From Candidatus Micrarchaeota archaeon (lineage in GTDB: Archaea > Micrarchaeota > Micrarchaeia > Micrarchaeales > CABMGC01): 64,000 bases of DNA. Every line of letters starts with the position of its first letter. Positions within the stretch are counted from its first letter, which is position 1. The position numbers and the translations under genes are program-made. The notes below the pieces were generated by a model. It was not told the origin of the DNA and searched no databases. It worked only from the letters and a program-made list of their open reading frames with translations. This document shows positions 4,059 through 17,166 of this stretch, piece by piece. The stretch covers positions 26,611 to 90,610 of the forward strand of contig DAHXMA010000025.1 in NCBI GenBank assembly GCA_027365725.1. Reading direction: 5' to 3'.

Positions 4059-4634
4059 ATGTTCATATATCCGAGCATGTACAGGAAGCTAAAGCGCGGG
4101 CCGCAGGTAATACTGCCAAAGGACATAGGGATAATAATCTCATACTCTGGCATAGGAAAGGACAGCATATGCGCAGACGCAGGCACTGGCAGCGGCTGGC
4201 TTGCAGTAAGCCTTGCGCGCATATGCAGGCAGGTATACAGCTACGACACCCGCAGCGACTTCATAGCAATAGCAGAAAAGAACAGGGCAATGCTAGGCCT
4301 TGCCAACCTGGAATTCATAAATAGGGACGTCACGAAGGGAATTTTGCAGAAGGATCTGGACCTGGTTGCGCTTGATATGCCCGGCTCGGAAAAGGCCCTA
4401 TCAAGCGCAAGGAAGGCGCTCAAGCCAGGAGGCGTGGTGGCCGGGTACCTTCCCCACACAGAGCAGGTAAGCAAATTCGTCGCGCGCCTTGAGAAACTTG
4501 GGTTCTGGGACATACACACTGTTGAAGTGATAGTCAGGGACTTCATGGTTCGCAGCGAAGGCACAAGGCCTTCAACAAAGGGCATATGGCACACTGCGTA
4601 CCTTGTTTTTGCAAAAAAATCCCAATCAATTTAA
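4059..4634 (+). CDS. trmI: tRNA (adenine-N1)-methyltransferase, TrmI/Trm61 family
   Basis: GPQVILPKDIGIIISYSGI..., the SAM motif DAGTGSGWLAVSLA, and LDMPGSEKALSSARKALKPGGVVAGYLP...HTAYLVFAKK are collinear with archaeal TrmI. Confidence 0.8.
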   Translation: MFIYPSMYRKLKRGPQVILPKDIGIIISYSGIGKDSICADAGTGSGWLAVSLARICRQVYSYDTRSDFIAIAEKNRAMLGLANLEFINRDVTKGILQKDLDLVALDMPGSEKALSSARKALKPGGVVAGYLPHTEQVSKFVARLEKLGFWDIHTVEVIVRDFMVRSEGTRPSTKGIWHTAYLVFAKKSQSI

Positions 4635-5470
4635 ACCCTTCCTTTCAATATAAGGAATGCAAATACAACTATACGGTCGGTTTTCTGAATATTAAGAAGC
4701 ATCTCACAAAGGGCAATATTGCATTCATAGTCCTGGCTGCGGTAGCCGTAATATTCTGCATACAGTTCAGGACCACGATGCTTAGCACCTACGGCTTCTA
4801 TGAGCCTGACGGCTACTACTATTTCACGGCAATGCGCGCCATAATAAACAACGGCTTCAAATTCCCCCCTCTGCTCGCCATCTCCGGGTATCCCCAGCAC
4901 GCTCCGATAGCCGAGGCGCACGGGATATATTGGCTCACCCTCATACCCTACATTCTGCTCTCCCCGTTCAACATAAGCTACTATACCATAATGAGGTTAA
5001 TGCCTGTTGCATTCGCACTCCTTGACATGCTTGCTGCATGGCTCCTGTCAAGATACCTTAGCCGTGACAAGCTTTTCGGGGCATTTGTGCTTTTCTTCGT
5101 GGCACTTAGTATGGGCAACGCCGCAAGGACAAGTGCATTGATATACAGGGGAGACAGCTTCGTTACATTTTTCCTTGCAATAGCCCTTGTGCTGCTTATA
5201 GAGACATTAAGGCAGGAGGATGCAAGGAAGAAGGCAGTTTTAGCCGTAGCAACAAGCATTGCCCTGCTCGGATGCAACCTTGTATGGAACGGCGCATCGT
5301 TTGCGGATGCGACCTTCATAAGCGCATTCTTCGTAATAGCGGCATTTGCATTTGTATTCAGGAAGGAGAAGCTTTTTGAGAGCAGCAAGTACATGCTGCT
5401 TTCAATAATAATATGGTACATACTTGTAAATGCGTCAAGGGCAGCGGGGTTCATACCTGGTCAGCAATAG
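4586..5470 (+). CDS. aglB: GT-C fold oligosaccharyltransferase (AglB/STT3-like), N-terminal part ending at an in-frame TAG
   Basis: Polytopic membrane ORF with FYEPDGYYYF, an acidic first-loop motif like STT3/AglB/PglB. The start is uncertain because the track start overlaps trmI by 49 nt. It is in the same frame as ORF 5504-7069 and separated from it only by TAG 5468-5470. Confidence 0.55.
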   Translation: MAHCVPCFCKKIPINLNPSFQYKECKYNYTVGFLNIKKHLTKGNIAFIVLAAVAVIFCIQFRTTMLSTYGFYEPDGYYYFTAMRAIINNGFKFPPLLAISGYPQHAPIAEAHGIYWLTLIPYILLSPFNISYYTIMRLMPVAFALLDMLAAWLLSRYLSRDKLFGAFVLFFVALSMGNAARTSALIYRGDSFVTFFLAIALVLLIETLRQEDARKKAVLAVATSIALLGCNLVWNGASFADATFISAFFVIAAFAFVFRKEKLFESSKYMLLSIIIWYILVNASRAAGFIPGQQ

Positions 5471-5503
5471 ACAGGGCCGGAGTTCATACCGATTTTTGCA
5501 GTC

Positions 5504-7069
5504 ATGGTTGCGTTCTGGGCTATACTACTCTACCTGCCGCAGGTTCTTCCAGACGCATCGCGGAAATTGGAATATAGGATCGGGGTTGTCGTAGCAATAA
5601 TACTAATAGGCATAATACTTTTCGCTGTGCTGGAGCCAAGCGCGGTATATAGCATCTTTGTCGGCAACGGATTCATAGCTGCGCCAGGGTCTTTCGCATC
5701 AACAACGCAGGAGCTGCAGCCGCCGACATGCGAATTCCTGTACACGAGCTTCGGGATAAACATGTTCACGTCGCTGCCAGACCTTGCGATGGAGCTATCA
5801 TCCCTAAGCGGCCTGCAGTGCGGAACTGCTGCCGGATCCTTTTATTCGCTATGGACAGTGGCATACGGGGCACTTGGAATAATATTGCTGCTGATAACAT
5901 TCATACCTTACCTGTTTATGCAGGTATATGATTCATCCGGGTTCTTTGGCGGCAAGCCAAAGATAATGTTCAGCATCGAGGCGCCGATGCTGGTGATAAT
6001 GACATATTTCATAATAACTGCATATCTTGAAATGCATGCAATAAGGTTCAATTCCCTGCTTTCCATCCCGCTTGCGATAGTGAGCGCCTACACTTTGTAC
6101 TGGATAATTCTCATGGCTAACGGCACCAAGCTATTCTATCCAAACGGCAGATATGTTGCGCTTTTGGCGATGGCGATAATTGTTGCATACATATTCTATC
6201 AATTGTATTACTTCGCCGCCGTATATTCCAGCACCCTGTCCCCTGCTGACAGCATAAACCCGCAGTTCATATCCGCTCTGATGTGGCTGAAAGCGAATTC
6301 GCCTCCATCGAGCGTAGTGCTAACGCTATGGCCCGACGGCTCTGTAGTAGAGGGAGTGGCTAACAGGACAAGTGTCATGGACAGCGTCGGCTCGGAGAAC
6401 GGAAGCAAGGCCACGCCCTTTGCTGCATGGCTCTTCAATTCCTCCCCTGACCCAAGCTTCCTTACAAGTTCGATCGCCGGAAGCCCAAACTACCTGCTGG
6501 TAAGGTCGCCGTGGATGATAGAGACGCAGGGCATATATACAGAGGCAAACATAGGCACTAACAGCAGCGTGTACGGCTACGCCTCGCTGATATCATTTTC
6601 AGAGCAGTCACTGAATTCTACAACAAAGGCCATCGTAATGAGCCCCACGCCAGGCCAGACCTACCCAAGCGCAGTTCTCAAGCTTAGCTATTCAAACCCC
6701 AACGGAACCCTTGCATCGCTCTTCGGCTACCTGCAGGAGAGCCAGATACAGACTTCGCCGTTTAGCAGGGTCGTGCTTTCAGACTTCACCAACAACAATG
6801 TAACCGTGGTAGACCAGGGAGGCATAAACCAGACAAACGGAGAGACCCTTTTTGTGCAGTACTCGCAGGTGCCGCGCCAGAACCTGTTTTTGAACATCAC
6901 AACTGCGTATGTGTTCGGCCCCGCGATATCCCAGAGCAACCTTGTAAAGACCCTCTTCCTATGCGGAAGCAACTACTGCGCATGGGACAACAACAAGGCA
7001 TCCCTTCAGATTGTATACGCCAATTCGGATACCAAGATATTCAAGATAATATACAATTCAACATCCTGA
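5504..7069 (+). CDS. aglB: GT-C fold oligosaccharyltransferase (AglB/STT3-like), C-terminal part
   Basis: Further TM helices, then LTLWPDGSVVEG (a degenerate WWDYG-like motif), followed by a soluble Asn/Ser-rich C-terminal domain of about 270 aa. The codons between the TAG and the first ATG (TGPEFIPIFAV) contain no stop. Confidence 0.55.
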   Translation: MVAFWAILLYLPQVLPDASRKLEYRIGVVVAIILIGIILFAVLEPSAVYSIFVGNGFIAAPGSFASTTQELQPPTCEFLYTSFGINMFTSLPDLAMELSSLSGLQCGTAAGSFYSLWTVAYGALGIILLLITFIPYLFMQVYDSSGFFGGKPKIMFSIEAPMLVIMTYFIITAYLEMHAIRFNSLLSIPLAIVSAYTLYWIILMANGTKLFYPNGRYVALLAMAIIVAYIFYQLYYFAAVYSSTLSPADSINPQFISALMWLKANSPPSSVVLTLWPDGSVVEGVANRTSVMDSVGSENGSKATPFAAWLFNSSPDPSFLTSSIAGSPNYLLVRSPWMIETQGIYTEANIGTNSSVYGYASLISFSEQSLNSTTKAIVMSPTPGQTYPSAVLKLSYSNPNGTLASLFGYLQESQIQTSPFSRVVLSDFTNNNVTVVDQGGINQTNGETLFVQYSQVPRQNLFLNITTAYVFGPAISQSNLVKTLFLCGSNYCAWDNNKASLQIVYANSDTKIFKIIYNSTS

Positions 7070-7137: not shown

Positions 7138-10100
7138 ATGCGCATATTCTATATATTATTAATAGTCGTCCCAATCGCCATAGCTCTTTCGCAAAGCTCA
7201 GGGTCTTCTTCAGCAACTGCATACCTCACCTTCTCAGGAACTCCGCAGTCAGCGCAGTTCTCACAATCCGCATCGCAGCCGTATGCACTCTCCCCTGCAA
7301 AGCCGGTATATGAATATAACAACGCAGATGCGCTTTATCTGATAACCTGCCCGAATGCTCCAAGCAGCTCCCCATCAAGCCCCCAGCTTTTCAGCACAAC
7401 AGGCTCGCAGGTCTTTGGAGCATGGTACCTTGCAGGAAACGAGTGCCAAGCGCCTTCATCATCTTCCACGTATCCTGTATCAGTAAAGATAACCGATACT
7501 GTAACTTCCCCTCCGCCCCAGTCGCTGCCAACATCATACTCCTCCAGCGTAAACGTGATGCTGACAGGCGCAACGCACTTGTCATTGAGCAACATAGGCT
7601 TCTCCCCAGAGCTTGTAACCCCCACAGGCAATTTCATATCAACCGACTTCAATACCGACACATACATCTTCCACCTTGTCCCGGTGAACGGCCAGCAGGG
7701 CATATGGACATGGTATGGCATGTACGCGCAGCTTTCGCAGCTCGACAGCAAGCTTCCAATAACCGCATACGCAAACACGCAGGGCGTGTACGACTACAAT
7801 GCGATATGCGAATACACCTACTCCCTATACTCATCCGCAACCCTCGAAAGCATAAAGAACTATGACATGCCATTCTCAGGCGCGCAAAGCGCAACGATAA
7901 ACATAGGAATGCTCCCATATTTTGTGTACAATGCAAACGTAGTCAATCCAATGCCGTCTAACGAGTTCAACTACCAGATATCGTACGACATCTACAGCCC
8001 GCAGAACTACTACGCTCCAAAAGGCGTTGTAGAGCCATTCGGCATAAACTCAATAAGCCTGTTCCTCACCGGCTACAACGGCAATCTATCATACATGAAC
8101 AACAAGAACCAGCTGCAAATAACCCTCTCCAGCGCAGACTCAAACATAGGCCTTCTTATGCCACTAATCCCATCATCAAGCACGACAACTCCCTCGTCAG
8201 GCCAGTGCCCTAACCAGTACTACACCCCTTCTTACAGCCCTTCTGGCCCCGGCCACCAGCTGACATTGTCCCAGGTCATAGCATGCGCAAGCAATGCCGG
8301 ATTCACAGGAGGCGAGCTTGTTACAATAGTTTCAATGGCTTTCCAGGAAAGCAGCTTCCAGCCTGGAGACATGGAAGCAGTATACTGCGCAGCAGGAATA
8401 TTGCAGGAGGGCCATGGCAACTGCCCGTACCCCGAATCAACGTCATTCATATCAGGATATAGCCCTTTAACATGCAGCACATATGCACAATATGGCTGGG
8501 CAGGAGTATATTTCAATCCGACATGCGCATTCCAATGGGCGCATGCCGAGGTAAATGACCAGGGATTCTATCCATTCTGGGGCAGCTATGAGACAGGCGC
8601 ATACTGCAAATATGCTCCAAACGGCTTTACCGGAGTAACCGACCCGGCAGGAGGAATAACGGTCCCATGCAGCGGAGTAGACCAGAACCAGATACCTTCC
8701 TACTTAGGCTCATGGACCTCTAGCGGATATGTTTATTCAATGCCATCCAATTCGGCATCCGGAATAACTGCACATATAAGCACATTCGCACAGTCAGGCA
8801 CCACCGGAACTACGGGGCAGGACACGTACTCTATAACCATAAATCCAAATTCGATAACTGCAGATCCCAACGGGTACATATTCGTCCTAGGCACCAACCC
8901 CAACGCAGGCAAAGCAGGCAGCGGGCCTTCCCCAGGTGCAAGCTCATGCAACCAGAATCAAATATGCGCAGAAGCATTAACTCAGCTCGGCGTGCCGTAT
9001 TGTTATGGCGCAGAGTCCCCAAGGGGCTCAGATCCATTGATATATACGGACTTTTGCTCACCTTACGGAACAGGAGGCATAGTGACTGGAAGATCCGGAG
9101 GATTTGACTGCTCAGGGCTTGTAGACTGGGCAACTTCAGAAGCCGGATTGCCTGTCTTCGGCACCTATTCTCCAGGCACACATGGCCTTGCAACCACCGG
9201 AGAATTCACAAGCTCAAGTGTTATTCACATAACGCAGGCAGAGGCTCTTCCGGGCGATCTGGTTTTCTTCAATGTTCCAGGGGAAAGTCCCCAGCCATCC
9301 CACGTAGGCATATGCTATAACGTAGGCTGCACAGAGATGATTGCGGCTCCGCAGACAGGATATACTGTATACATAGGTTCTGTGTCAGGAGTTTGCGGCA
9401 TTTCGTGCATTGCAGGCTATGTCAGAGTAAAAGGAAGCAACGGCGCAGCGGCATCTCCGTATCAAGGTTATGCAACGCAGCCATCAAATGAAATAGGCCT
9501 GTCTGCTGCTGAGTTCAATCAAACCACATCGCAAAACGTATTTGCTGTGGCGCCTCCCCCTCCTTCCTCAAGCACGGCAGTAACCCCAGAGCAGCAATAT
9601 CTCTCTGAGATATCCACATCTGGCACTGCCATATTCGTGCTAAAGGCAATACCTCCGGGATATTACAATGCGACACTATACCAGCCAAACGACGTGCCGA
9701 ATGCAACTGACCCTTCAACATTCGCAACAAACTGGAATCAGTACTGGTCGAACCTTCAGATTCTCCAGTCCCAGAGCCTATATGTTGTGAATGTAATCTC
9801 CATAACAAAGCTACTTGCATCATCCCCGTCAACGCAGGGCCTTGACTTTTCCCCGATAAACATATCAAGCGACTCCTTCGGTGACATATACATCACCGGC
9901 GAGGCATCTGCACAATCTCACACCGTAGGGCGGTTCTCTACAGTAGTAAACTCGTATTCCCCATGGCTTGTCAAGATAACAAACACTCTGGGGAACGGCC
10001 CGATAGAGGTATCCGCGGCTCCGCTCTGCCCGTCAGGCCAGTCTAGCGTGCCAAGTGAGATATGCCCAAGGGCCTGGCCAGAAATTGCTGTCTCCCCTAC

Positions 10101-13100
10101 AGGATCACAGGTATACATAGCAAATTCCTCATCTGGATACATCCCGATATACAACGGAGGCACATTGGCATACTCGACGTACATCAGCCTAGACTTCAAC
10201 AACGACCAGGCCCTTTATACATCACTACTTTCTGGCCCGTCAGAGGGCGTGGCTGCAAACATAATAGACTACTTCCAGAACGGCGGCCTGTACAATATAA
10301 CAACCGACTGCGGCGGATCCGGCCAGCCTGCATGCACATCTGATGACAACAAGATGAAGGATATAATAAATACTTATAAGTCCACCCAATCATACAGCCA
10401 GGTAAAGGATCAGCTCGACCAGGTGGACTGGCCAAGCGGAAATTCCAATAACAACTACCATCATCCGCTTGGAATAGAGGATATAAACGGCTACCTTTAT
10501 GTGCTAGACGACTGGGCAGGCACAACTGGCTTATCCTGCAATTTCAATATAGGCGGCCTCTGCGCGCCTTTGACAAACACAGGCGGAATACTCTTCAACA
10601 TATTGGATCTGAGGGTCATAAACTCCAGCGGAGTTGATGTTCCTATAGTGCCTACATACTACAATGACCTCTGGTACTATACAAACTCAGACCAATACTC
10701 ACTTAAGAAGTTCACGGCCAACAGCAACAACCTTTACCCTCCTTTCGGGTGGATACTTTCTGCAAACGTAAGTGCGATGAAGGTAACGTCCTTCGGACTA
10801 TTCGCCGGGCCCCAGCCGCCGTTCATAAGCCTGTGCTCCGGAGACGCAAGCCAGTGCAGCAACCCTCCCTCAAACTATTACGGCACGCTGCTCCCCATAG
10901 GGCCGCCGCTAAAAGCATACGGCACATGCAACTTCCTTGGCGTTGGCCAGTCTGCGATATGGGCTTCAGACGTTGCATTCTCTGTCAACTACAACAACAC
11001 CGCAAGCATATACATCCCTTCAAGCGCAAACATACAGAATCCAGGATGCAGCTCTAACAAGAACTCCGAGCTGATCCTTGCGCACCTCAATCCACAGAAC
11101 TACACCAAGCAGATAGGCACGGCAAGCCCGATACCTTTCCAGAACGGGCTGAACTACAAATGCTATACTGGCGATTCCCAGATGTCAAGCTCAGCCACTT
11201 CGCAGGCAGAGTGTTCCTATGATCCAAACACACCAAAGCTATCCGGGCCTATATATCTGGCATCAAACCCATTCGAGTTCGATTCAAACTTCGGCGGATA
11301 CCAGGTGCTGGCGCTTGATGCAATCTACGGGTCCGCATTTTCCGGCGGCTCAGGGCCAAGCTCACAGATAGGCAGCGGCGGCTCCCTGAGCGGATACTCA
11401 AACAGCATATTGAACGGGCTCAGCGGCACAGTAAAAGGGATATCTGGCACAAGCTTTACCAACCTGAATTCGCTCCAGAACTTTCAGCAGAGCTATGCAA
11501 CATCGCTTAACAGCGTGATAACCGGCTACGCAGTGCTTCCATTCTCATACACATACCAGCTAAGCTGGTACATAAGCGACATAAGCCCTGTAGGGCCGTT
11601 GGCATGCGACAACATACCTTCATCTGTATCGAACCTTGAGGGACCTCAAACATCCACACAGACCATCTATGCTTCAACTGCTTCAAACCAGCAGCAATCA
11701 GGCAACCAAGAAGCATCCATAGAGGGAGGGCCTTCCTATGCAAGATCCGGGCTAAATACAACAGAATACTACAATGCGAGCCTGTATTCGATAATAATTC
11801 CGAGCCACATACTCTACAACATAATAAACAGCAGGCTGTTTGGCAAAACCTATGTCAATAGCACAATCAATGCCAAGACAAACGAGCAGGAGATCGTAAA
11901 TGCGACCACCCTTTACACATATGCCTCAAACATGTTCAGCCAAGGCGCCCTGCCCGGGTACGAAATATTCACGCAGCAGCCGCTGTCGCCTGCATGCAGC
12001 GGAGTCAAATGCGCAGCGCCGCTGGCAAACGTAAACAAGGCATACCTTGTCAAAAACCTATTTTCAACAGTGCCTTCGAACCCGTCTCTCATAACCCTGT
12101 TCAACTTCTTCAGGCTGCCTGTAGACAACCTGGCAATTTCGCTGCAAATGAACGGCACTCTGCCAGGAAGCTCTGACATAGCATATGGCTACCACAGGCT
12201 GGTATTTGTGTACAATGACCGCTTCAACAACACAGTATACATGCCTCTTGACGCTGACATAGCCAATCTTACAGAGATTGCATTGAATGTCACTCCAGAC
12301 GTCAACTCCATAAACGTAAACCAAACAACCATAGTTATAAACGGCACGGCTTTTTGGACTGTGCCGCTGACTACCAACACAGTGCCTCTCAAGGGAGGGG
12401 ACATATACCTGTACTATGATACAAATCTAGATTCCATAGGATACAATGCAGTGGACCAGAAATATCCAACCGATATCGCAGCGGCAACGCTATGCGCATT
12501 CACTTCAGACCATACTGGCGCATGCCAGTACGCAAATCCGGTGTGGACCGGGCTGCAGTACAACAGCAGCCTTCCAGAGGCGATATCCGGCACAAGATGC
12601 ATTGGCCAAGGATGCTTCCTAAACAACGGCCTATATCCTGACGGCACGCCATACATAAGCGCAAATGTCATAACATACAAGCCGTCGTTCAACTCCCATG
12701 GATACTGCTCTCCACCTGCGAACAGCCTGCTGCAGCCTATAAATGCAATATACACAATGTGCAATATTTATGCATCTGCGGCAGCGAATGCGAATATAGA
12801 CAACACCTGCCCGGCAAGCCCTCAGGGCAACACACAGTACTGCTATCCTCTCTATCACAACGGCACCGGAATTTGCACTTCCCAGCTTGGCCTAATAGGC
12901 ATATATCCTACCAATTCGATGGGATATTTCAATGCAAACATAGTTGCATGCGGATCTGCTTCGGCTACAATAATAGCGCAGTACTTCGGCACTCCGGCGC
13001 CAGAGCCCATATCCGCTAGCCAGTCTGCGCTTCCATATTCCGCTGACCCTTCATCATCGCAGTACCTGAGCTTCAAGACCGTGAATTATTCATGGACTCC

Positions 13101-13272
13101 GGTCCAGGTATCGGAGCCTGTACAGACAGGGTCGCTCCTGCTCAGCCTGGGAAGCATAAAATACCTGCCTGTGCTAGTGCTTGCCATAGGCGCAGCAATA
13201 ATACTGTACGGCGCAAAGAAGAGCAGCGGCAGAAGGCAAAGGCGCCGGTCCATGCGTAACAACAGGATTTAA
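7138..13272 (+). CDS. giant secreted, C-terminally membrane-anchored surface protein with SLT-like lysozyme module, NlpC/P60 peptidase module and propeller-like repeats
   Basis: 2044-aa ORF. The N-terminal signal-like segment is MRIFYILLIVVPIAIALSQS. The module SMAFQESSFQPGD...AAGILQEG spans nt ~8260-8630. The module GVPYCYGAE...GGFDCSGLVDWA...GDLVFF...PSHVGICY spans nt ~8962-9435. Repeats include GDIYITG, SQVYIANSSSGYIPIYN and INGYLYVLDDWAG. There are many NxS/T sequons and Cys residues. The C-terminal TM is YLPVLVLAIGAAIILYG, followed by KKSSGRRQRRRS. Confidence 0.9.
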   Translation: MRIFYILLIVVPIAIALSQSSGSSSATAYLTFSGTPQSAQFSQSASQPYALSPAKPVYEYNNADALYLITCPNAPSSSPSSPQLFSTTGSQVFGAWYLAGNECQAPSSSSTYPVSVKITDTVTSPPPQSLPTSYSSSVNVMLTGATHLSLSNIGFSPELVTPTGNFISTDFNTDTYIFHLVPVNGQQGIWTWYGMYAQLSQLDSKLPITAYANTQGVYDYNAICEYTYSLYSSATLESIKNYDMPFSGAQSATINIGMLPYFVYNANVVNPMPSNEFNYQISYDIYSPQNYYAPKGVVEPFGINSISLFLTGYNGNLSYMNNKNQLQITLSSADSNIGLLMPLIPSSSTTTPSSGQCPNQYYTPSYSPSGPGHQLTLSQVIACASNAGFTGGELVTIVSMAFQESSFQPGDMEAVYCAAGILQEGHGNCPYPESTSFISGYSPLTCSTYAQYGWAGVYFNPTCAFQWAHAEVNDQGFYPFWGSYETGAYCKYAPNGFTGVTDPAGGITVPCSGVDQNQIPSYLGSWTSSGYVYSMPSNSASGITAHISTFAQSGTTGTTGQDTYSITINPNSITADPNGYIFVLGTNPNAGKAGSGPSPGASSCNQNQICAEALTQLGVPYCYGAESPRGSDPLIYTDFCSPYGTGGIVTGRSGGFDCSGLVDWATSEAGLPVFGTYSPGTHGLATTGEFTSSSVIHITQAEALPGDLVFFNVPGESPQPSHVGICYNVGCTEMIAAPQTGYTVYIGSVSGVCGISCIAGYVRVKGSNGAAASPYQGYATQPSNEIGLSAAEFNQTTSQNVFAVAPPPPSSSTAVTPEQQYLSEISTSGTAIFVLKAIPPGYYNATLYQPNDVPNATDPSTFATNWNQYWSNLQILQSQSLYVVNVISITKLLASSPSTQGLDFSPINISSDSFGDIYITGEASAQSHTVGRFSTVVNSYSPWLVKITNTLGNGPIEVSAAPLCPSGQSSVPSEICPRAWPEIAVSPTGSQVYIANSSSGYIPIYNGGTLAYSTYISLDFNNDQALYTSLLSGPSEGVAANIIDYFQNGGLYNITTDCGGSGQPACTSDDNKMKDIINTYKSTQSYSQVKDQLDQVDWPSGNSNNNYHHPLGIEDINGYLYVLDDWAGTTGLSCNFNIGGLCAPLTNTGGILFNILDLRVINSSGVDVPIVPTYYNDLWYYTNSDQYSLKKFTANSNNLYPPFGWILSANVSAMKVTSFGLFAGPQPPFISLCSGDASQCSNPPSNYYGTLLPIGPPLKAYGTCNFLGVGQSAIWASDVAFSVNYNNTASIYIPSSANIQNPGCSSNKNSELILAHLNPQNYTKQIGTASPIPFQNGLNYKCYTGDSQMSSSATSQAECSYDPNTPKLSGPIYLASNPFEFDSNFGGYQVLALDAIYGSAFSGGSGPSSQIGSGGSLSGYSNSILNGLSGTVKGISGTSFTNLNSLQNFQQSYATSLNSVITGYAVLPFSYTYQLSWYISDISPVGPLACDNIPSSVSNLEGPQTSTQTIYASTASNQQQSGNQEASIEGGPSYARSGLNTTEYYNASLYSIIIPSHILYNIINSRLFGKTYVNSTINAKTNEQEIVNATTLYTYASNMFSQGALPGYEIFTQQPLSPACSGVKCAAPLANVNKAYLVKNLFSTVPSNPSLITLFNFFRLPVDNLAISLQMNGTLPGSSDIAYGYHRLVFVYNDRFNNTVYMPLDADIANLTEIALNVTPDVNSINVNQTTIVINGTAFWTVPLTTNTVPLKGGDIYLYYDTNLDSIGYNAVDQKYPTDIAAATLCAFTSDHTGACQYANPVWTGLQYNSSLPEAISGTRCIGQGCFLNNGLYPDGTPYISANVITYKPSFNSHGYCSPPANSLLQPINAIYTMCNIYASAAANANIDNTCPASPQGNTQYCYPLYHNGTGICTSQLGLIGIYPTNSMGYFNANIVACGSASATIIAQYFGTPAPEPISASQSALPYSADPSSSQYLSFKTVNYSWTPVQVSEPVQTGSLLLSLGSIKYLPVLVLAIGAAIILYGAKKSSGRRQRRRSMRNNRI

Positions 13273-13299: not shown

Positions 13300-14661
13300 G
13301 TGATTAATACGGATGGTGCGACGCGCAAAAGGCCCCAGGCGGGTGCGGCAGGTGCTAGGTCTGCGGCAGAGCCAATATCACAAAATCAGCAGGGCGTAGC
13401 TCAGCTTGGCAACTCTGCAATCGAGGAAGCCGTAAGGAAGACGGCATTAACGTCGTTTAGCGCAATAAATGATGGGCTTAAAAAGCTCGCTGACATTTCA
13501 AAGCAGGGAAGGCTAAGCACAGACGAGGCAAGGGCGCTTGAAAACGATATAAACAAAGAGGCCAGGCATGTGGGCGTGCTGATACGGTCTTTTGACAAGC
13601 TCCTGGCGCCAGGCATGGCCGATTCGATGATAAGGGAATTAAACAAGATGATGACAGACGGCGCCAAAGACATATACGGTACCGGTAATCATATCAGCTG
13701 GCATGACCTATCTGAGATATCAATGGTAAAAGCGCATATAACCGGCAGCGTCCTTGACCCAAGCGACATGGGCTCAGTGCTTAAAAACCTGGAAAATGCA
13801 GCGAAGGAATCCGTAATTGCGGCATTTCAAAAAACGAAAATAGACTTCGACGAAATGGAAGCCAAGTTCGTAGACCTGAAATCCGCACTCAGAGACATCG
13901 GAGGCCTAGGCCCTGGCAGGTCTGAAGTAATTGACGATGCAAACAAAGTTGCAATGCTCAGCGCAGGTCCTGTAAGCGATAATGACGGCAATAAAACAAG
14001 GACGGAATACCTGATTGAGGCCCGTCAGCTAAAAGATAAGCTAAGCGGCCTGCAAAGGGGCCAGGAATACGTAGACAACCTTGTAATGCAGGCATCTGCG
14101 CTTGCTGCTGCAGGCGAGCATTCAAGGGCAGGAAAAGCATACGAAAGCGCGCTGCAGCATATAAGCTGGCTTGAAAACGAAAAAGCAGCATCTCCATCCG
14201 CTGCTGACGTACTGCATGGTTTCAGGAAGGACATAATGTCATTAAAGCTGGAACTCAACGAAAGCGCGGCAAGCGAGTTCATGGCAGGAGGAACCATGTC
14301 AAAAGCGAAGAGGCACTATCTTGAAGCCGCAAAGCTCTCAGGAATAGGGGCAGATACTGAAAGGCAGCAGGATAATATTCAGGCGGCAGCAGGCGCAGAA
14401 GCAAATGCCAAACGTCATAATAAGGCCGCATCGCTATATATAAGGGCCTCATTGCTCTCAGCATCAAAGCCGGAGGAGGAATCAAAACTACTCATTCATG
14501 CTGCAGATGAATATGCCCTGATTGCAAACGGAGGAAAGGAAAAAGCGCTTCAACACTATGCCAAAGCAATAGATGCAGCAAGCAGATCGGAGAGCAAGGA
14601 AGCAGAAGACCTGAAAGCGATGGCAAGGGAAAAGATAAAAAAACTAGAGGATGCCAATTAG
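13300..14661 (+). CDS. hypothetical Ala-rich helical-repeat protein (TPR/SNAP-like C-terminal half)
   Basis: 453-aa ORF with a GTG start 28 nt after the giant gene and no signal peptide. It contains repeated A..Y..A helices (RAGKAYESALQHI, KAKRHYLEAAKL, KAASLYIRASLL, KALQHYAKAIDAA). The start codon is uncertain. Confidence 0.6.
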   Translation: MINTDGATRKRPQAGAAGARSAAEPISQNQQGVAQLGNSAIEEAVRKTALTSFSAINDGLKKLADISKQGRLSTDEARALENDINKEARHVGVLIRSFDKLLAPGMADSMIRELNKMMTDGAKDIYGTGNHISWHDLSEISMVKAHITGSVLDPSDMGSVLKNLENAAKESVIAAFQKTKIDFDEMEAKFVDLKSALRDIGGLGPGRSEVIDDANKVAMLSAGPVSDNDGNKTRTEYLIEARQLKDKLSGLQRGQEYVDNLVMQASALAAAGEHSRAGKAYESALQHISWLENEKAASPSAADVLHGFRKDIMSLKLELNESAASEFMAGGTMSKAKRHYLEAAKLSGIGADTERQQDNIQAAAGAEANAKRHNKAASLYIRASLLSASKPEEESKLLIHAADEYALIANGGKEKALQHYAKAIDAASRSESKEAEDLKAMAREKIKKLEDAN

Positions 14662-15003: not shown

Positions 15004-15075
15004 GGGCTCTTAGCTCAACGGTAGAGCGTCCGCTTTGCAGGCGGAAGGTTGCGGGTTCGAATCCCGCAGAGTCCA
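15004..15075 (+). tRNA. tRNA-Ala (anticodon UGC)
   Basis: Cloverleaf folded by hand. The acceptor GGGCTCT/AGAGTCC carries the G3:U70 alanine identity pair. D arm GCTC..GAGC, anticodon stem TCCGC/GCGGA with loop TTTGCAG, T arm GCGGG-TTCGAAT-CCCGC, discriminator A. No intron and no encoded CCA. Confidence 0.93.
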
Positions 15076-15076
15076 C

Positions 15077-15492: not shown

Positions 15493-17166
15493 ATGCCAGA
15501 TGCAGCTGATCCATCGCAGGCCGCTGCTGATGCCAGCAATGCGTCTAGCCCTGCACCTCAACGAAGGCAGCCTGCCAGCGGACGAGCCTCTCCTAAATTA
15601 TTAATCGCAGGAGTGGCAGTGGCTATAATAGCAATAGTGCTTATAGCAGCGTACCTGCTGCTGGGAAGCCACATTGCATCAGTTTCAAGGTATGCCCTGC
15701 TTGCTGAGACCCTCTCTTCTGGAAAGCAGGTTACACTGAGCAAAGTGCTGCAATTGCTAAACGTAAGCCTAATTCCAAGCAGCGCAGTAAATTCAAGCGT
15801 GAATGCAAACTACTCCGGCTCCGGAGGCGCTTCAGTTGTATACAGTGGCATTAACCTCAATATACCTTTCAGATACACTGCCTCAGAGCAGGCAAACGGA
15901 AGCTATTCCAGAACCGCAATACAGCTGAACACGCTCGGCACAAATATATCTGGCACATACATATCCACTCCAAGCGAGACGCTGCTATGTGGCAATCAAA
16001 ATCAGTCATACTCATTCCTTGCATCTGCAATATCTGGCTCGGGCTCTTCCGCATCGCCTGCCGAAAAACCTGACTACAAATGCATTCTATCAAGCTTCTC
16101 CAGATCGCCTTTAGCATCGTTAAATTCAAGCTCAATGAAAACCCTAAACTTGCTGATAAACTACGTAGGCAACAACACGTATATCAATGCCAGCAAGACC
16201 AGCTATTCAACCTACAAAGGCAGCAGCTGCATATATGTTGCAGGGCATATACACACCAACACGATTAATCTGGGCACACTGCTTGCCTCTTTATACAATA
16301 GTACGTCTCAAAATTCTTCAAGCGCCTCCGGTGATACCTTCGAATTAAGCGGACCGTACTCGGCGTGCGTATCTCCCTCGTCAGGAGCAGTGTACAACTT
16401 TAGCGTTTCTATTGCGGCAAACATCGAATATAAAGCATCTTCATACTCCTCTTCCGAATCAAATTTTAACGTCAGCTTATCTATCTCTGGAAATGCGACC
16501 TCCATAGGGGCGCCAGAGCCGTATTCTTTTATCTCCAATCCTCCGTACCCGATAATAAACGGGACCTGCTCAAACCAGAACCTGCTAATAGATCCAATGA
16601 ATTACCAATCCTCATTTTCCCCATATTACTATTCCTGCCAGTCTGTAGACCTTAATAGCACCGGAGGGCTCAGGCTTGTACTGTCACCTGAGCAAAACCC
16701 TTACGGATCGCTATATGGAAATTATTCAACGCCATCCGCAGCACAGACAAGCCCTGCAAGGATCCTGGGGCTTGCATGCAACTCCTATCAGAACGCGTTC
16801 CTGGCGCCAAATGCATCTTCGTATAAACCTGTAAATATTACCGTAAATCAAAATTCAGAGCTAACCTTGATATTCTCATGCCCCATTACCCCCGCAAACA
16901 AACTCGAGTATTCTGCAAGCTTGTACATAGTCACGCAGCAGAATGGCACATCTTTTAATTCGTATCCAGGGATGAACGGCACGTATTCACAGTCAAGCAA
17001 CATGAGCTATTTCCTTACTTCAATAACTGCCTTCCCTACAATATCAGGGCCGCTGGGAAGGAATGCCAACACGGGTCCAGTGTCAAGCCGCGTGGTGCTG
17101 CCACAGAGCCCTTCCTATAACTACACCTTCAATTTTACAACAACAATCCCTTACAATGCGACCTGA
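15493..17166 (+). CDS. N-terminally anchored Ser/Asn-rich extracellular protein (probable glycoprotein)
   Basis: 557-aa ORF. It has a Pro/Ala-rich cytoplasmic head, one TM (LLIAGVAVAIIAIVLIAAYLLLG), then a long S/N/T-rich region with many NxS/T sequons. TATA-like AATTTAAAT lies 21-29 nt upstream. Confidence 0.7.
   Translation: MPDAADPSQAAADASNASSPAPQRRQPASGRASPKLLIAGVAVAIIAIVLIAAYLLLGSHIASVSRYALLAETLSSGKQVTLSKVLQLLNVSLIPSSAVNSSVNANYSGSGGASVVYSGINLNIPFRYTASEQANGSYSRTAIQLNTLGTNISGTYISTPSETLLCGNQNQSYSFLASAISGSGSSASPAEKPDYKCILSSFSRSPLASLNSSSMKTLNLLINYVGNNTYINASKTSYSTYKGSSCIYVAGHIHTNTINLGTLLASLYNSTSQNSSSASGDTFELSGPYSACVSPSSGAVYNFSVSIAANIEYKASSYSSSESNFNVSLSISGNATSIGAPEPYSFISNPPYPIINGTCSNQNLLIDPMNYQSSFSPYYYSCQSVDLNSTGGLRLVLSPEQNPYGSLYGNYSTPSAAQTSPARILGLACNSYQNAFLAPNASSYKPVNITVNQNSELTLIFSCPITPANKLEYSASLYIVTQQNGTSFNSYPGMNGTYSQSSNMSYFLTSITAFPTISGPLGRNANTGPVSSRVVLPQSPSYNYTFNFTTTIPYNAT

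Follow-up and report, generated by a model that had tools for sequence, protein, structure and literature searches.

A membrane-anchored giant protein of Micrarchaeota carrying lysozyme-like and NlpC/P60 modules: a candidate tool for breaching bacterial peptidoglycan on contact

The protein analyzed here is a giant of 2044 residues, encoded by a single open reading frame (ORF) in a 64,000-nucleotide stretch of a Candidatus Micrarchaeota archaeon (contig DAHXMA010000025.1, positions 26,611 to 90,610), which is referred to as the window. It combines an anchored extracellular scaffold, retained across the Micrarchaeota, with two envelope-hydrolase-type modules, one lysozyme-like and one of the NlpC/P60 cysteine peptidase family, in which a Glu and a Cys-His pair, respectively, are conserved. 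An anchored giant surface protein with two such modules had been proposed in the initial annotation of the window and is upheld by the present analysis. With moderate confidence, the protein is considered to be a display protein by which peptidoglycan is breached in a contact-dependent manner. From the membrane outward, the transmembrane anchor, the conserved blocks C3 and C2, the C1 propeller and a distal N-domain would together form a stalk for cell contact or adhesion, into which two enzyme modules would have been inserted near the distal end in the window lineage. The first, a putative glycosidase or lytic transglycosylase of lysozyme-like type with Glu404 as general acid, would follow the N-domain and precede a conserved propeller strand, and the second, a putative cysteine peptidase (Cys658/His722), would be situated in the loop after that strand. 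Kept at a distance from the envelope of the producing cell and acting as a pair, the modules would cleave the glycan strands and the peptide stems of the peptidoglycan of a touching bacterium. Breaching the wall of a bacterial host or prey, harvesting wall sugars and peptides, or killing competitors might be the purpose of such an activity. An immunity protein would not be needed, because the archaeal envelope is without murein. Murein is the presumed substrate because it is the only one common to SLT, Phage_lysozyme2, NlpC/P60 and M23 domains, and action on contact is suggested because the modules are tethered to the producing cell and lie near the membrane-distal end. The coordinates of all features are collected in Table 1.

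The reading frame opens with ATG and ends with TAA, and its translation contains all of the peptides quoted in the initial annotation. An identical 2044-residue protein is recorded on contig DAHXPI010000016.1 of assembly GCA_027364395.1. Strong hydrophobicity is confined to two segments, at residues 1-24 and approximately 2000-2026; with a threshold of 1.6, Kyte-Doolittle 19-residue windows start at residues 1-6 and 1998-2010, and one further window at residue 744 barely reaches the threshold. The N-terminal helix is a signal peptide or a signal anchor, with cleavage being putative. Close to the C-terminal transmembrane helix, glycines G1998 and G2005 are invariant in the family. Charged residues are scarce (K+R 2.8%, D+E 5.4%) and Cys is frequent, with 45 residues, many of which are invariant among relatives; this low charge and richness in Cys fit an extracellular protein of an acidophile. 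The NxS/T sequons, initially described as many, are not enriched, since 24 were observed and approximately 30 are expected from the composition of the protein.

Regarding the peptidase module, the NlpC/P60 core noticed in the initial annotation is firmly recognized by sequence and by structure. In the Pfam scan, residues 620-750 match NlpC/P60 (PF00877, MEROPS C40) with 35.4 bits against a cut-off of 23. In a phmmer search of the PDB, the best match of the segment was 6b8c (E 1.3e-6), followed by 7cfl, 9ubf, RipA-type proteins and CwlO. An AlphaFold2 model of residues 355-790 displayed a predicted local distance difference test (pLDDT) value of approximately 90 over this domain. Foldseek matched the domain against the PDB with 4hpe (E 1.8e-7), 9ubf (TM-score 0.81) and 8er5 (TM-score 0.82, the best), while 8auc, Cg1735, RipA, RipB and CwlO were further matches, with E values ranging from 2e-7 to 1e-4. 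It can be observed that the top PDB matches are peptidoglycan hydrolases only, and that the matches among viral models are phage NlpC/P60 proteins, CHAP lysins and tail proteins. An acyltransferase or phospholipase function, offered as an alternative in the initial annotation, is left without positive support, as the close structural and sequence neighbors are all peptidoglycan endopeptidases.

The catalytic positions of this module can be read from the alignment with 6b8c and from the model. The nucleophile Cys658 is aligned to the GFDCSG motif of 6b8c and the base His722 to its HVAI motif; in the model, a helix (304-314 in segment numbering) begins at Cys658 and a strand (368-372) at His722. 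Both residues are kept in the nine giant homologues in which both motifs are readable. The codon positions originally assigned to Glu404, Cys658 and His722 proved exact. The third member of the triad had been described as replaced (EMIAAP), which is also the case: Ala736 stands opposite the His of '..IHAP' in 6b8c, a position that we take to be equivalent to the third-residue Glu of RipA ('..LEAP'). In those giant orthologues whose motif is readable, this position is Asp or Glu, so that the peptidase of the window protein may be attenuated. The motif MIAAPQ, with Ala at the third position, is also found in actinobacterial NlpC/P60+SLT proteins, which are among the nearest NlpC/P60 relatives (Geodermatophilaceae-type proteins of approximately 320 residues, such as P0043, P0057, P0066, P0074 and others), and the alanine is therefore not a private decay of the window protein. 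Residues 602-767 are thus a bona fide NlpC/P60 member with an atypical triad. That both modules are catalytically dead or weak, and serve only as an adhesin that binds the wall in the manner of the inactive NlpC/P60 protein RipD, is regarded as quite unlikely. Ala736, a weak NCBIfam match of the module to the inactive RipD model, and the lack of a separate wall-binding domain, for which the catalytic folds might substitute, would be consistent with such a role. However, the Cys nucleophile, the His base and the Glu-Ser pair are strictly kept in the window protein and its relatives, and the sharing of MIAAPQ with the actinobacterial proteins, together with the Asp or Glu of the orthologues, also argues against it.

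The lysozyme-like module is recognized through its family. Taken as a single sequence, the segment returned only a chance T-cell-receptor match from the PDB, and PF01464 (SLT) has no match in the 2044-residue protein. Stand-alone secreted proteins of 210-260 residues are 47-51% identical to the module, and a domain of this kind occupies the corresponding place in many giant homologues. In an alignment of 15 such sequences, Glu404, Ser405 and six Cys are invariant, and the G-I/L-L-Q motif is nearly so. Among these 15 family members, SLT_3 is matched in nine (best E 4.5e-6), Phage_lysozyme2 in seven and SLT in two. For the giant at locus L035, the SLT_3 match reaches 29.8 bits, over the cut-off of 27. 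With the family profile, Glu404 falls on the catalytic Glu35 of C-type lysozymes, and GILQ on the GI(F/L)Q of these enzymes (E 0.002), and hhalign against the SLT alignment brought the E-S and G-L-M-Q motifs into register, across 35 columns only (E 0.0035, probability 9%). An exhaustive search with the lysozyme-like profile over 1.8 billion representatives gave 635 proteins at E<=1e-3. From the range of E 1e-9 to 1e-8, eight small proteins were scanned and all matched SLT_3, with 33-80 bits and with most of the domain aligned. In the AlphaFold2 model of residues 355-790, where the pLDDT of this module is mixed (55-92), Glu404 ends a helix (37-50 in segment numbering) and short strands come next, which is the arrangement of lysozymes. 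The conclusion holds that residues 356-532 are a divergent, disulfide-rich, SLT_3-related lysozyme-like domain with a conserved catalytic Glu, real at the level of the family. The initial description of this segment as a family-1 lytic transglycosylase or goose-type lysozyme is accordingly not sustained. E404-S405 and GILQ are present and conserved, but the family-1 SLT or goose-type label is ruled out by the sub-threshold Pfam score, by the lack in residues 356-532 of the A-Y-N-x-G motif of family-1 lytic transglycosylases, and by the lack of a convincing fold match. Small secreted stand-alone proteins of the family (P0025 at L002, 6001-6633; P0026 at L083, 547-1182; also P0027 and P0028) lie near genes of thermopsin/sedolisin-type proteases; they probably belong to other acidophilic archaea, and their carriers are possibly Thermoplasmata.

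The remainder of the protein, of which more than 1300 residues had seemed unrecognizable, proved to be a scaffold of ~1500 residues that is spread across the Micrarchaeota and in most cases bears no enzyme. A search with the whole protein gave 24 giant homologues of 1560-3266 residues, in which residues ~45-335 and ~835-2044 are conserved and the middle is variable. When one genome per GTDB species was scanned, scaffold relatives were found to be encoded in at least 113 species genomes, and 78 loci were kept. Their labels are mostly Micrarchaeota, Micrarchaeia or Micrarchaeaceae, the exceptions being four Marsarchaeota (L017, L034, L041 and L049), one 'bacterium' (L038) and a few 'uncultured archaeon'; the odd labels may reflect mislabelled bins or contamination. 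The family is nearly diagnostic of the phylum Micrarchaeota. Hidden Markov models of the conserved blocks were used to dissect 61 complete members. The linker between the N-domain and C1 measures 48-112 residues in the 34 insert-free members, and inserts of 158-917 residues are present in the other 27. Since the scaffold is mostly enzyme-free, the enzymes are accessory inserts and not the core of the protein.

Only one of the conserved blocks of the scaffold resembles a known fold. The NHL/YVTN-like strands pointed out at first reading are backed at the family level, where the C1 profile matches 1l0q, the YVTN propeller of a Methanosarcina mazei surface-layer protein, with E 1.5e-12, followed by hydrazine synthase beta (1.8e-6) and by PknD and Pizza NHL designs (1e-5 to 1e-3). 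With the single sequence, the sole Pfam match in this respect is SBBP at residues 565-586 (20.9 bits against a cut-off of 20.5). For the N-domain, no Pfam match in 17 members and no PDB sequence match were obtained; in profile-based scans, C2 has no Pfam or PDB match and C3 no meaningful one. Foldseek of a low-confidence model of residues 810-2009 returned propellers and alpha-2-macroglobulin, all with E>1e-3, which is taken as a hint only. The scaffold is also subject to extension and interruption. N-terminal extensions of 850-1330 residues precede the N-domain at L025, L035, L038, L042, L044, L053, L057 and L073, C3 is interrupted by approximately 700 residues at L064, and precomputed Pfam entries for similar proteins include PKD (P0021) and PF17830/PF23195 (P0017, P0020).

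The enzyme modules differ between members of this family but stand at recurrent places. In insert-free members, a conserved strand of the form '..P.SI.A.PN.YIYVLN..' comes first, and '..L.VLRLIP.GYYN', with which C1 begins, appears within ~10-25 residues after it. The counterparts in the window protein are NPNSITADPNGYIFVL for the first strand and LKAIPPGYYN, from residue 835, for the second. The glycosidase is located before the first strand and the peptidase between the two strands, a layout with which most insert-bearing relatives agree, the exceptions being L007/L008, L033 and L039/L044. From this arrangement we infer two fixed insertion sites, the second of which is predicted to lie inside the hairpin loop of the first propeller blade. 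At L039 and L044, the lysozyme-like module is found within C1 rather than ahead of it. At L033, two lysozyme-like modules are followed by NlpC/P60 (residues 592-1168 of that giant), and at L018 two NlpC/P60 domains stand in tandem (residues 42-191 and 265-412).

A Pfam scan of 20 inserts revealed murein-hydrolase-type domains in 15, namely NlpC/P60 (up to 62 bits), SLT (43 bits), Phage_lysozyme2 (47-63 bits), SLT_3 (one above the cut-off and several weaker) and M23 (weak, under the cut-off); in addition, P0012 and P0013 have precomputed PF01551 (M23) entries. In a tree based on C3, the cassette-bearing members group in a clade that contains the window gene, and further cassette cases are scattered elsewhere on the tree. 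Within the clade the content is shuffled: a lysozyme-like module may occur alone, with NlpC/P60 (the window, L010 and L012), with an M23-like module, or with SLT and an M23-like module; Phage_lysozyme2 occurs with or without lysozyme-like and M23-like modules; and SLT occurs alone. The usual pattern that recurs at the two sites is a glycosidase together with a peptidase, drawn from unrelated families that share only murein as a substrate. The pairing emphasized in the initial annotation, typical of envelope-breaching enzymes, recurs in relatives as lysozyme-like with NlpC/P60 and lysozyme-like with M23-like, with SLT and Phage_lysozyme2 also participating. The conservation of the catalytic residues, combined with repeated exchange of modules at fixed sites, indicates selection on the enzymes. 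The same two features make it very improbable that the giant is a surface-layer (S-layer) or purely structural envelope protein in which the hydrolase modules are incidental passengers. That explanation draws on the resemblance of C1 to the Methanosarcina propeller and on the four surface proteins of approximately 2000 residues with YVTN propellers that are reported for Mia14 (PMC5498576). The identified S-layer protein of Micrarchaeota (SLP_Mh type) has a mass of ~101 kDa and a PF05123 S-layer domain (bioRxiv 10.1101/2021.04.28.441871). Identity with it is ruled out, the window protein being of 2044 residues and having no PF05123 match at E<=1.

Several observations weigh against a role in breaching peptidoglycan. 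No canonical peptidoglycan-binding domain (LysM, SH3b or PG_binding) was found in the Pfam scan. The cultivated Micrarchaeota have wall-less Thermoplasmatales as hosts (PMC8975820, PMC5498576), so that a murein target is unnecessary for the known symbiosis. In the peptidase, the third triad position, where a polar residue (His, Glu, Asp, Asn or Gln) would be looked for, is occupied by Ala736. The lysozyme-like module alone scores 14.9 bits with SLT_3 (PF18896), below the cut-off of 27, and in the Foldseek search of the two-domain model, which was dominated by NlpC/P60 matches, the sole lysozyme match was phiKZ gp144 with a non-significant E of 3.6. The structure of the scaffold is poorly predicted, with a pLDDT of 51 for residues 810-2009. 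Furthermore, the occurrence of stand-alone copies of the lysozyme-like module on thermopsin-bearing contigs makes a non-murein glycan substrate conceivable.

The last point leads to an explanation in which the substrate is not murein, but belongs to an archaeal partner or to a biofilm matrix, and in which the modules together remodel the site of contact with Thermoplasmatales. The lysozyme-like module would then cleave glycans containing N-acetylglucosamine (glycocalyx, extracellular polymeric substances or N-glycans), and the NlpC/P60 module would act as an amidase, acyltransferase or phospholipase on surface molecules of the host. This is considered unlikely. It accords with the wall-less nature of the known hosts, which display galactose/mannose glycans, with the remodelling of the surface at contact sites (PMC8975820), with the position of stand-alone secreted homologues beside thermopsin genes, with the high divergence of the glycosidase module and with the non-canonical triad. 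However, the significant neighbors of the peptidase are all peptidoglycan endopeptidases or phage lysins, the modules interchangeable at the same sites (SLT, Phage_lysozyme2 and M23-like) are murein-specific, and no similarity to LRAT/H-REV107-type acyltransferases appears among the matches. Cleavage of bacterial peptidoglycan on contact is thus still preferred. A tentative and unlikely extension of it is that the scaffold is an organelle for contact with partners and a plug-in platform whose cassette reports the type of host or prey; the clade with swappable cassettes at two fixed sites of the first propeller blade would in this case consist of Micrarchaeota that use bacteria for attachment or food, or kill them, instead of or besides associating with wall-less Thermoplasmatales.

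Table 1. Coordinates of the giant gene, its modules and catalytic codons, and adjacent features (positions in the window)
Feature	Position	Strand	Basis and remarks
Polytopic membrane protein, syntenic, candidate GT-C/AglB-like	4586..7069	+	827 codons, upstream of giant gene; in-frame TAG 5468-5470
AT-rich TATA-like stretch AAATATAAATATAA	7083..7096	+	42-55 nt upstream of ATG; read from sequence
Whole giant gene	7138..13272	+	2044 aa; type-I topology, ectodomain ~1975 aa; ORF list and translation
N-terminal signal peptide or signal anchor MRIFYILLIVVPIAIALSQ	7138..7194	+	Kyte-Doolittle hydropathy
Conserved N-domain, residues 45-335, membrane-distal	7270..8142	+	Family conservation
Lysozyme-like (SLT_3-related) module, residues 356-532, insertion site A	8203..8733	+	Family profiles; six invariant Cys
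Glu404 codon GAA, candidate general acid	8347..8349	+	Alignments, AlphaFold2 model
Conserved beta-strand motif NPNSITADPNGYIFVL, residues 569-584, between insertion sites	8842..8889	+	Insert-free relatives; SBBP match here
NlpC/P60 (C40) papain-like module, residues 602-767, insertion site B	8941..9438	+	Pfam, PDB, AlphaFold2, Foldseek
Cys658 codon TGC (GFDCSG), catalytic nucleophile by homology	9109..9111	+	6b8c alignment, AlphaFold2 model
His722 codon CAC (SHVGICY), catalytic base by homology	9301..9303	+	6b8c alignment, AlphaFold2 model
Ala736 codon GCG, third triad position (EMIAAP)	9343..9345	+	6b8c alignment, orthologue comparison
C1, residues 835-1210, divergent YVTN/NHL-type beta-propeller	9640..10767	+	Family profile
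C2, residues 1211-1679, conserved beta-rich region	10768..12174	+	Family conservation; AlphaFold2 confidence low
C3, residues 1680-2010, Cys-rich, membrane-proximal, best-conserved region	12175..13167	+	31 invariant columns, 17 species
C-terminal transmembrane helix, residues ~2000-2026	13135..13215	+	Hydropathy
Basic cytoplasmic tail, 18 residues, KKSSGRRQRRRSMRNNRI	13216..13269	+	Translation; Arg-rich, directly after transmembrane helix

The genomic surroundings are those of an archaeal chromosome. Genes for topoisomerase I, a GCD14-type methyltransferase, the RFC small subunit, the proteasome beta subunit and FttA are present in the window, and its archaeal origin is confirmed by the RFC, proteasome and FttA genes. 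The nearest loci are in metagenome-assembled genomes labelled Micrarchaeota; in isolate SKS1.bin82 (locus L006), RFC is 88% and topoisomerase 71% identical. The order topoisomerase, methyltransferase, polytopic membrane protein, giant gene is retained in approximately ten close relatives, and the giant gene is therefore a chromosomal resident and not part of a mobile element. Judged from its sequence, the TATA-like stretch is a possible promoter of its own for the giant gene. The polytopic membrane protein directly upstream is split by the in-frame TAG into ORFs 4586-5470 and 5504-7069, while the public record annotates it as a single product of 827 residues. The codon at this position specifies Leu or Phe in homologues, and TTG to TAG requires one substitution. 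Recoding of the stop codon is ruled out, given that TAG terminates 9 of the 25 long ORFs of the window and that homologues have Leu or Phe, and the TAG probably arose by nonsense mutation or through an error in the assembly. The identification of this gene as aglB, as suggested in the initial annotation, could not be established: no Pfam family is matched even at E<=1, and the sole lead is a non-significant best PDB match (E 0.44) to the C-terminal domain of yeast STT3 around WWDYG, which reads LWPDG here. Downstream of the giant gene, the ORFs at 13300-14661 and 15493-17166 (+ strand; 453 and 557 residues) have no family match and, one weak match aside, are not syntenic in relatives beside the giant gene. 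Between them, at 15004-15076, lies a gene for tRNA-Ala(TGC).

Every cultivated member of the Micrarchaeota relies on Thermoplasmatales that lack a wall, so that murein hydrolases would serve no evident purpose in them, and the present results suggest that some Micrarchaeota cut bacterial cell walls on contact. The cassettes shuffled within one clade offer a testable handle on such contact, in which bacteria might be hosts or prey, might compete, or might supply amino sugars that Micrarchaeota cannot make. The class of archaeal peptidoglycan hydrolases would be widened to a membrane-anchored, two-enzyme giant format, which would be missed by searches that demand a wall-binding domain. Moreover, three conserved domains without a recognized fold (the N-domain, C2 and C3) are defined across more than 100 species. 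In its stand-alone as well as its embedded form, the lysozyme-like family seems adapted to acid and rich in disulfides, and acid-stable muralytic enzymes might be sought in it.

The present family should be compared with two groups known before, namely the giant proteins of DPANN archaea with lytic-transglycosylase domains and the peptidoglycan hydrolases of archaea. In the searchable literature on Micrarchaeota with NlpC, lytic transglycosylase or lysozyme, no account was found of the scaffold family, of a two-site murein-hydrolase cassette or two-enzyme membrane-anchored format, or of the disulfide-rich lysozyme-like family that also occurs stand-alone. Peptidoglycan hydrolases by which archaea kill bacteria have been described (PLoS Biol 2025, PMC12352652; the GH25 lysozyme of Aciduliprofundum, eLife 2014, PMC4241558), and the main text of PMC12352652 does not mention Micrarchaeota. 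These enzymes likewise are bacterial-type murein hydrolases in murein-free archaea, with domain shuffling and a patchy distribution. They are small, secreted and modular, with one catalytic and one wall-binding domain, whereas the window protein has two catalytic modules on an anchored scaffold and no recognizable wall-binding domain. The same pairing of glycosidase and endopeptidase is found in bifunctional hydrolases of bacteria and phages, such as the PrgK/TcpG-type SLT+NlpC/P60 or CHAP proteins of type IV secretion systems, phi29 gp13 (lysozyme+M23), tail-associated lysins and P0043, and the closest sequence and fold neighbors of the window modules lie within this group. Those hydrolases belong to secretion machines or virions, or are secreted as small proteins, whereas the window protein is archaeal, has the order glycosidase then peptidase, and carries both inserted in a propeller-bearing stalk.

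Among giant surface proteins, the SPEARE proteins of Nanohaloarchaeota (Hamm et al. 2019, PMC6642349) are likewise DPANN giants with a C-terminal transmembrane anchor, a mostly extracytoplasmic location and a combination of enzymatic and adhesive parts, and have been proposed as tools of host interaction. They feature a serine protease, LamG and a conserved cytoplasmic type III restriction-endonuclease region; membership of the window protein is ruled out, as it is without such Pfam matches and has a cytoplasmic tail of 18 residues. The giant genes of predatory Omnitrophota (bioRxiv 10.1101/2023.11.21.568195), which have been implicated in degradation of the cell wall, likewise encode very long surface proteins with domains of this kind in small-celled episymbionts or predators, but they are bacterial and far larger, and the likeness is one of description. 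For the giant extracellular proteins with lytic-transglycosylase domains of Woesearchaeota and Pacearchaeota (fam00969), binding or degradation of bacterial walls has been proposed (PMC8204110; Vigneron et al. 2022, PMC9723730). They too are extracellular DPANN proteins of very large size (up to ~3000 residues) with a glycosidase domain of the lysozyme superfamily. Compared by description, fam00969 is specific to Woesearchaeota and Pacearchaeota, whereas the scaffold homologues found here are labelled Micrarchaeota with few exceptions, and the present family differs further in its second, peptidase module, its two fixed insertion sites and its many enzyme-free members.

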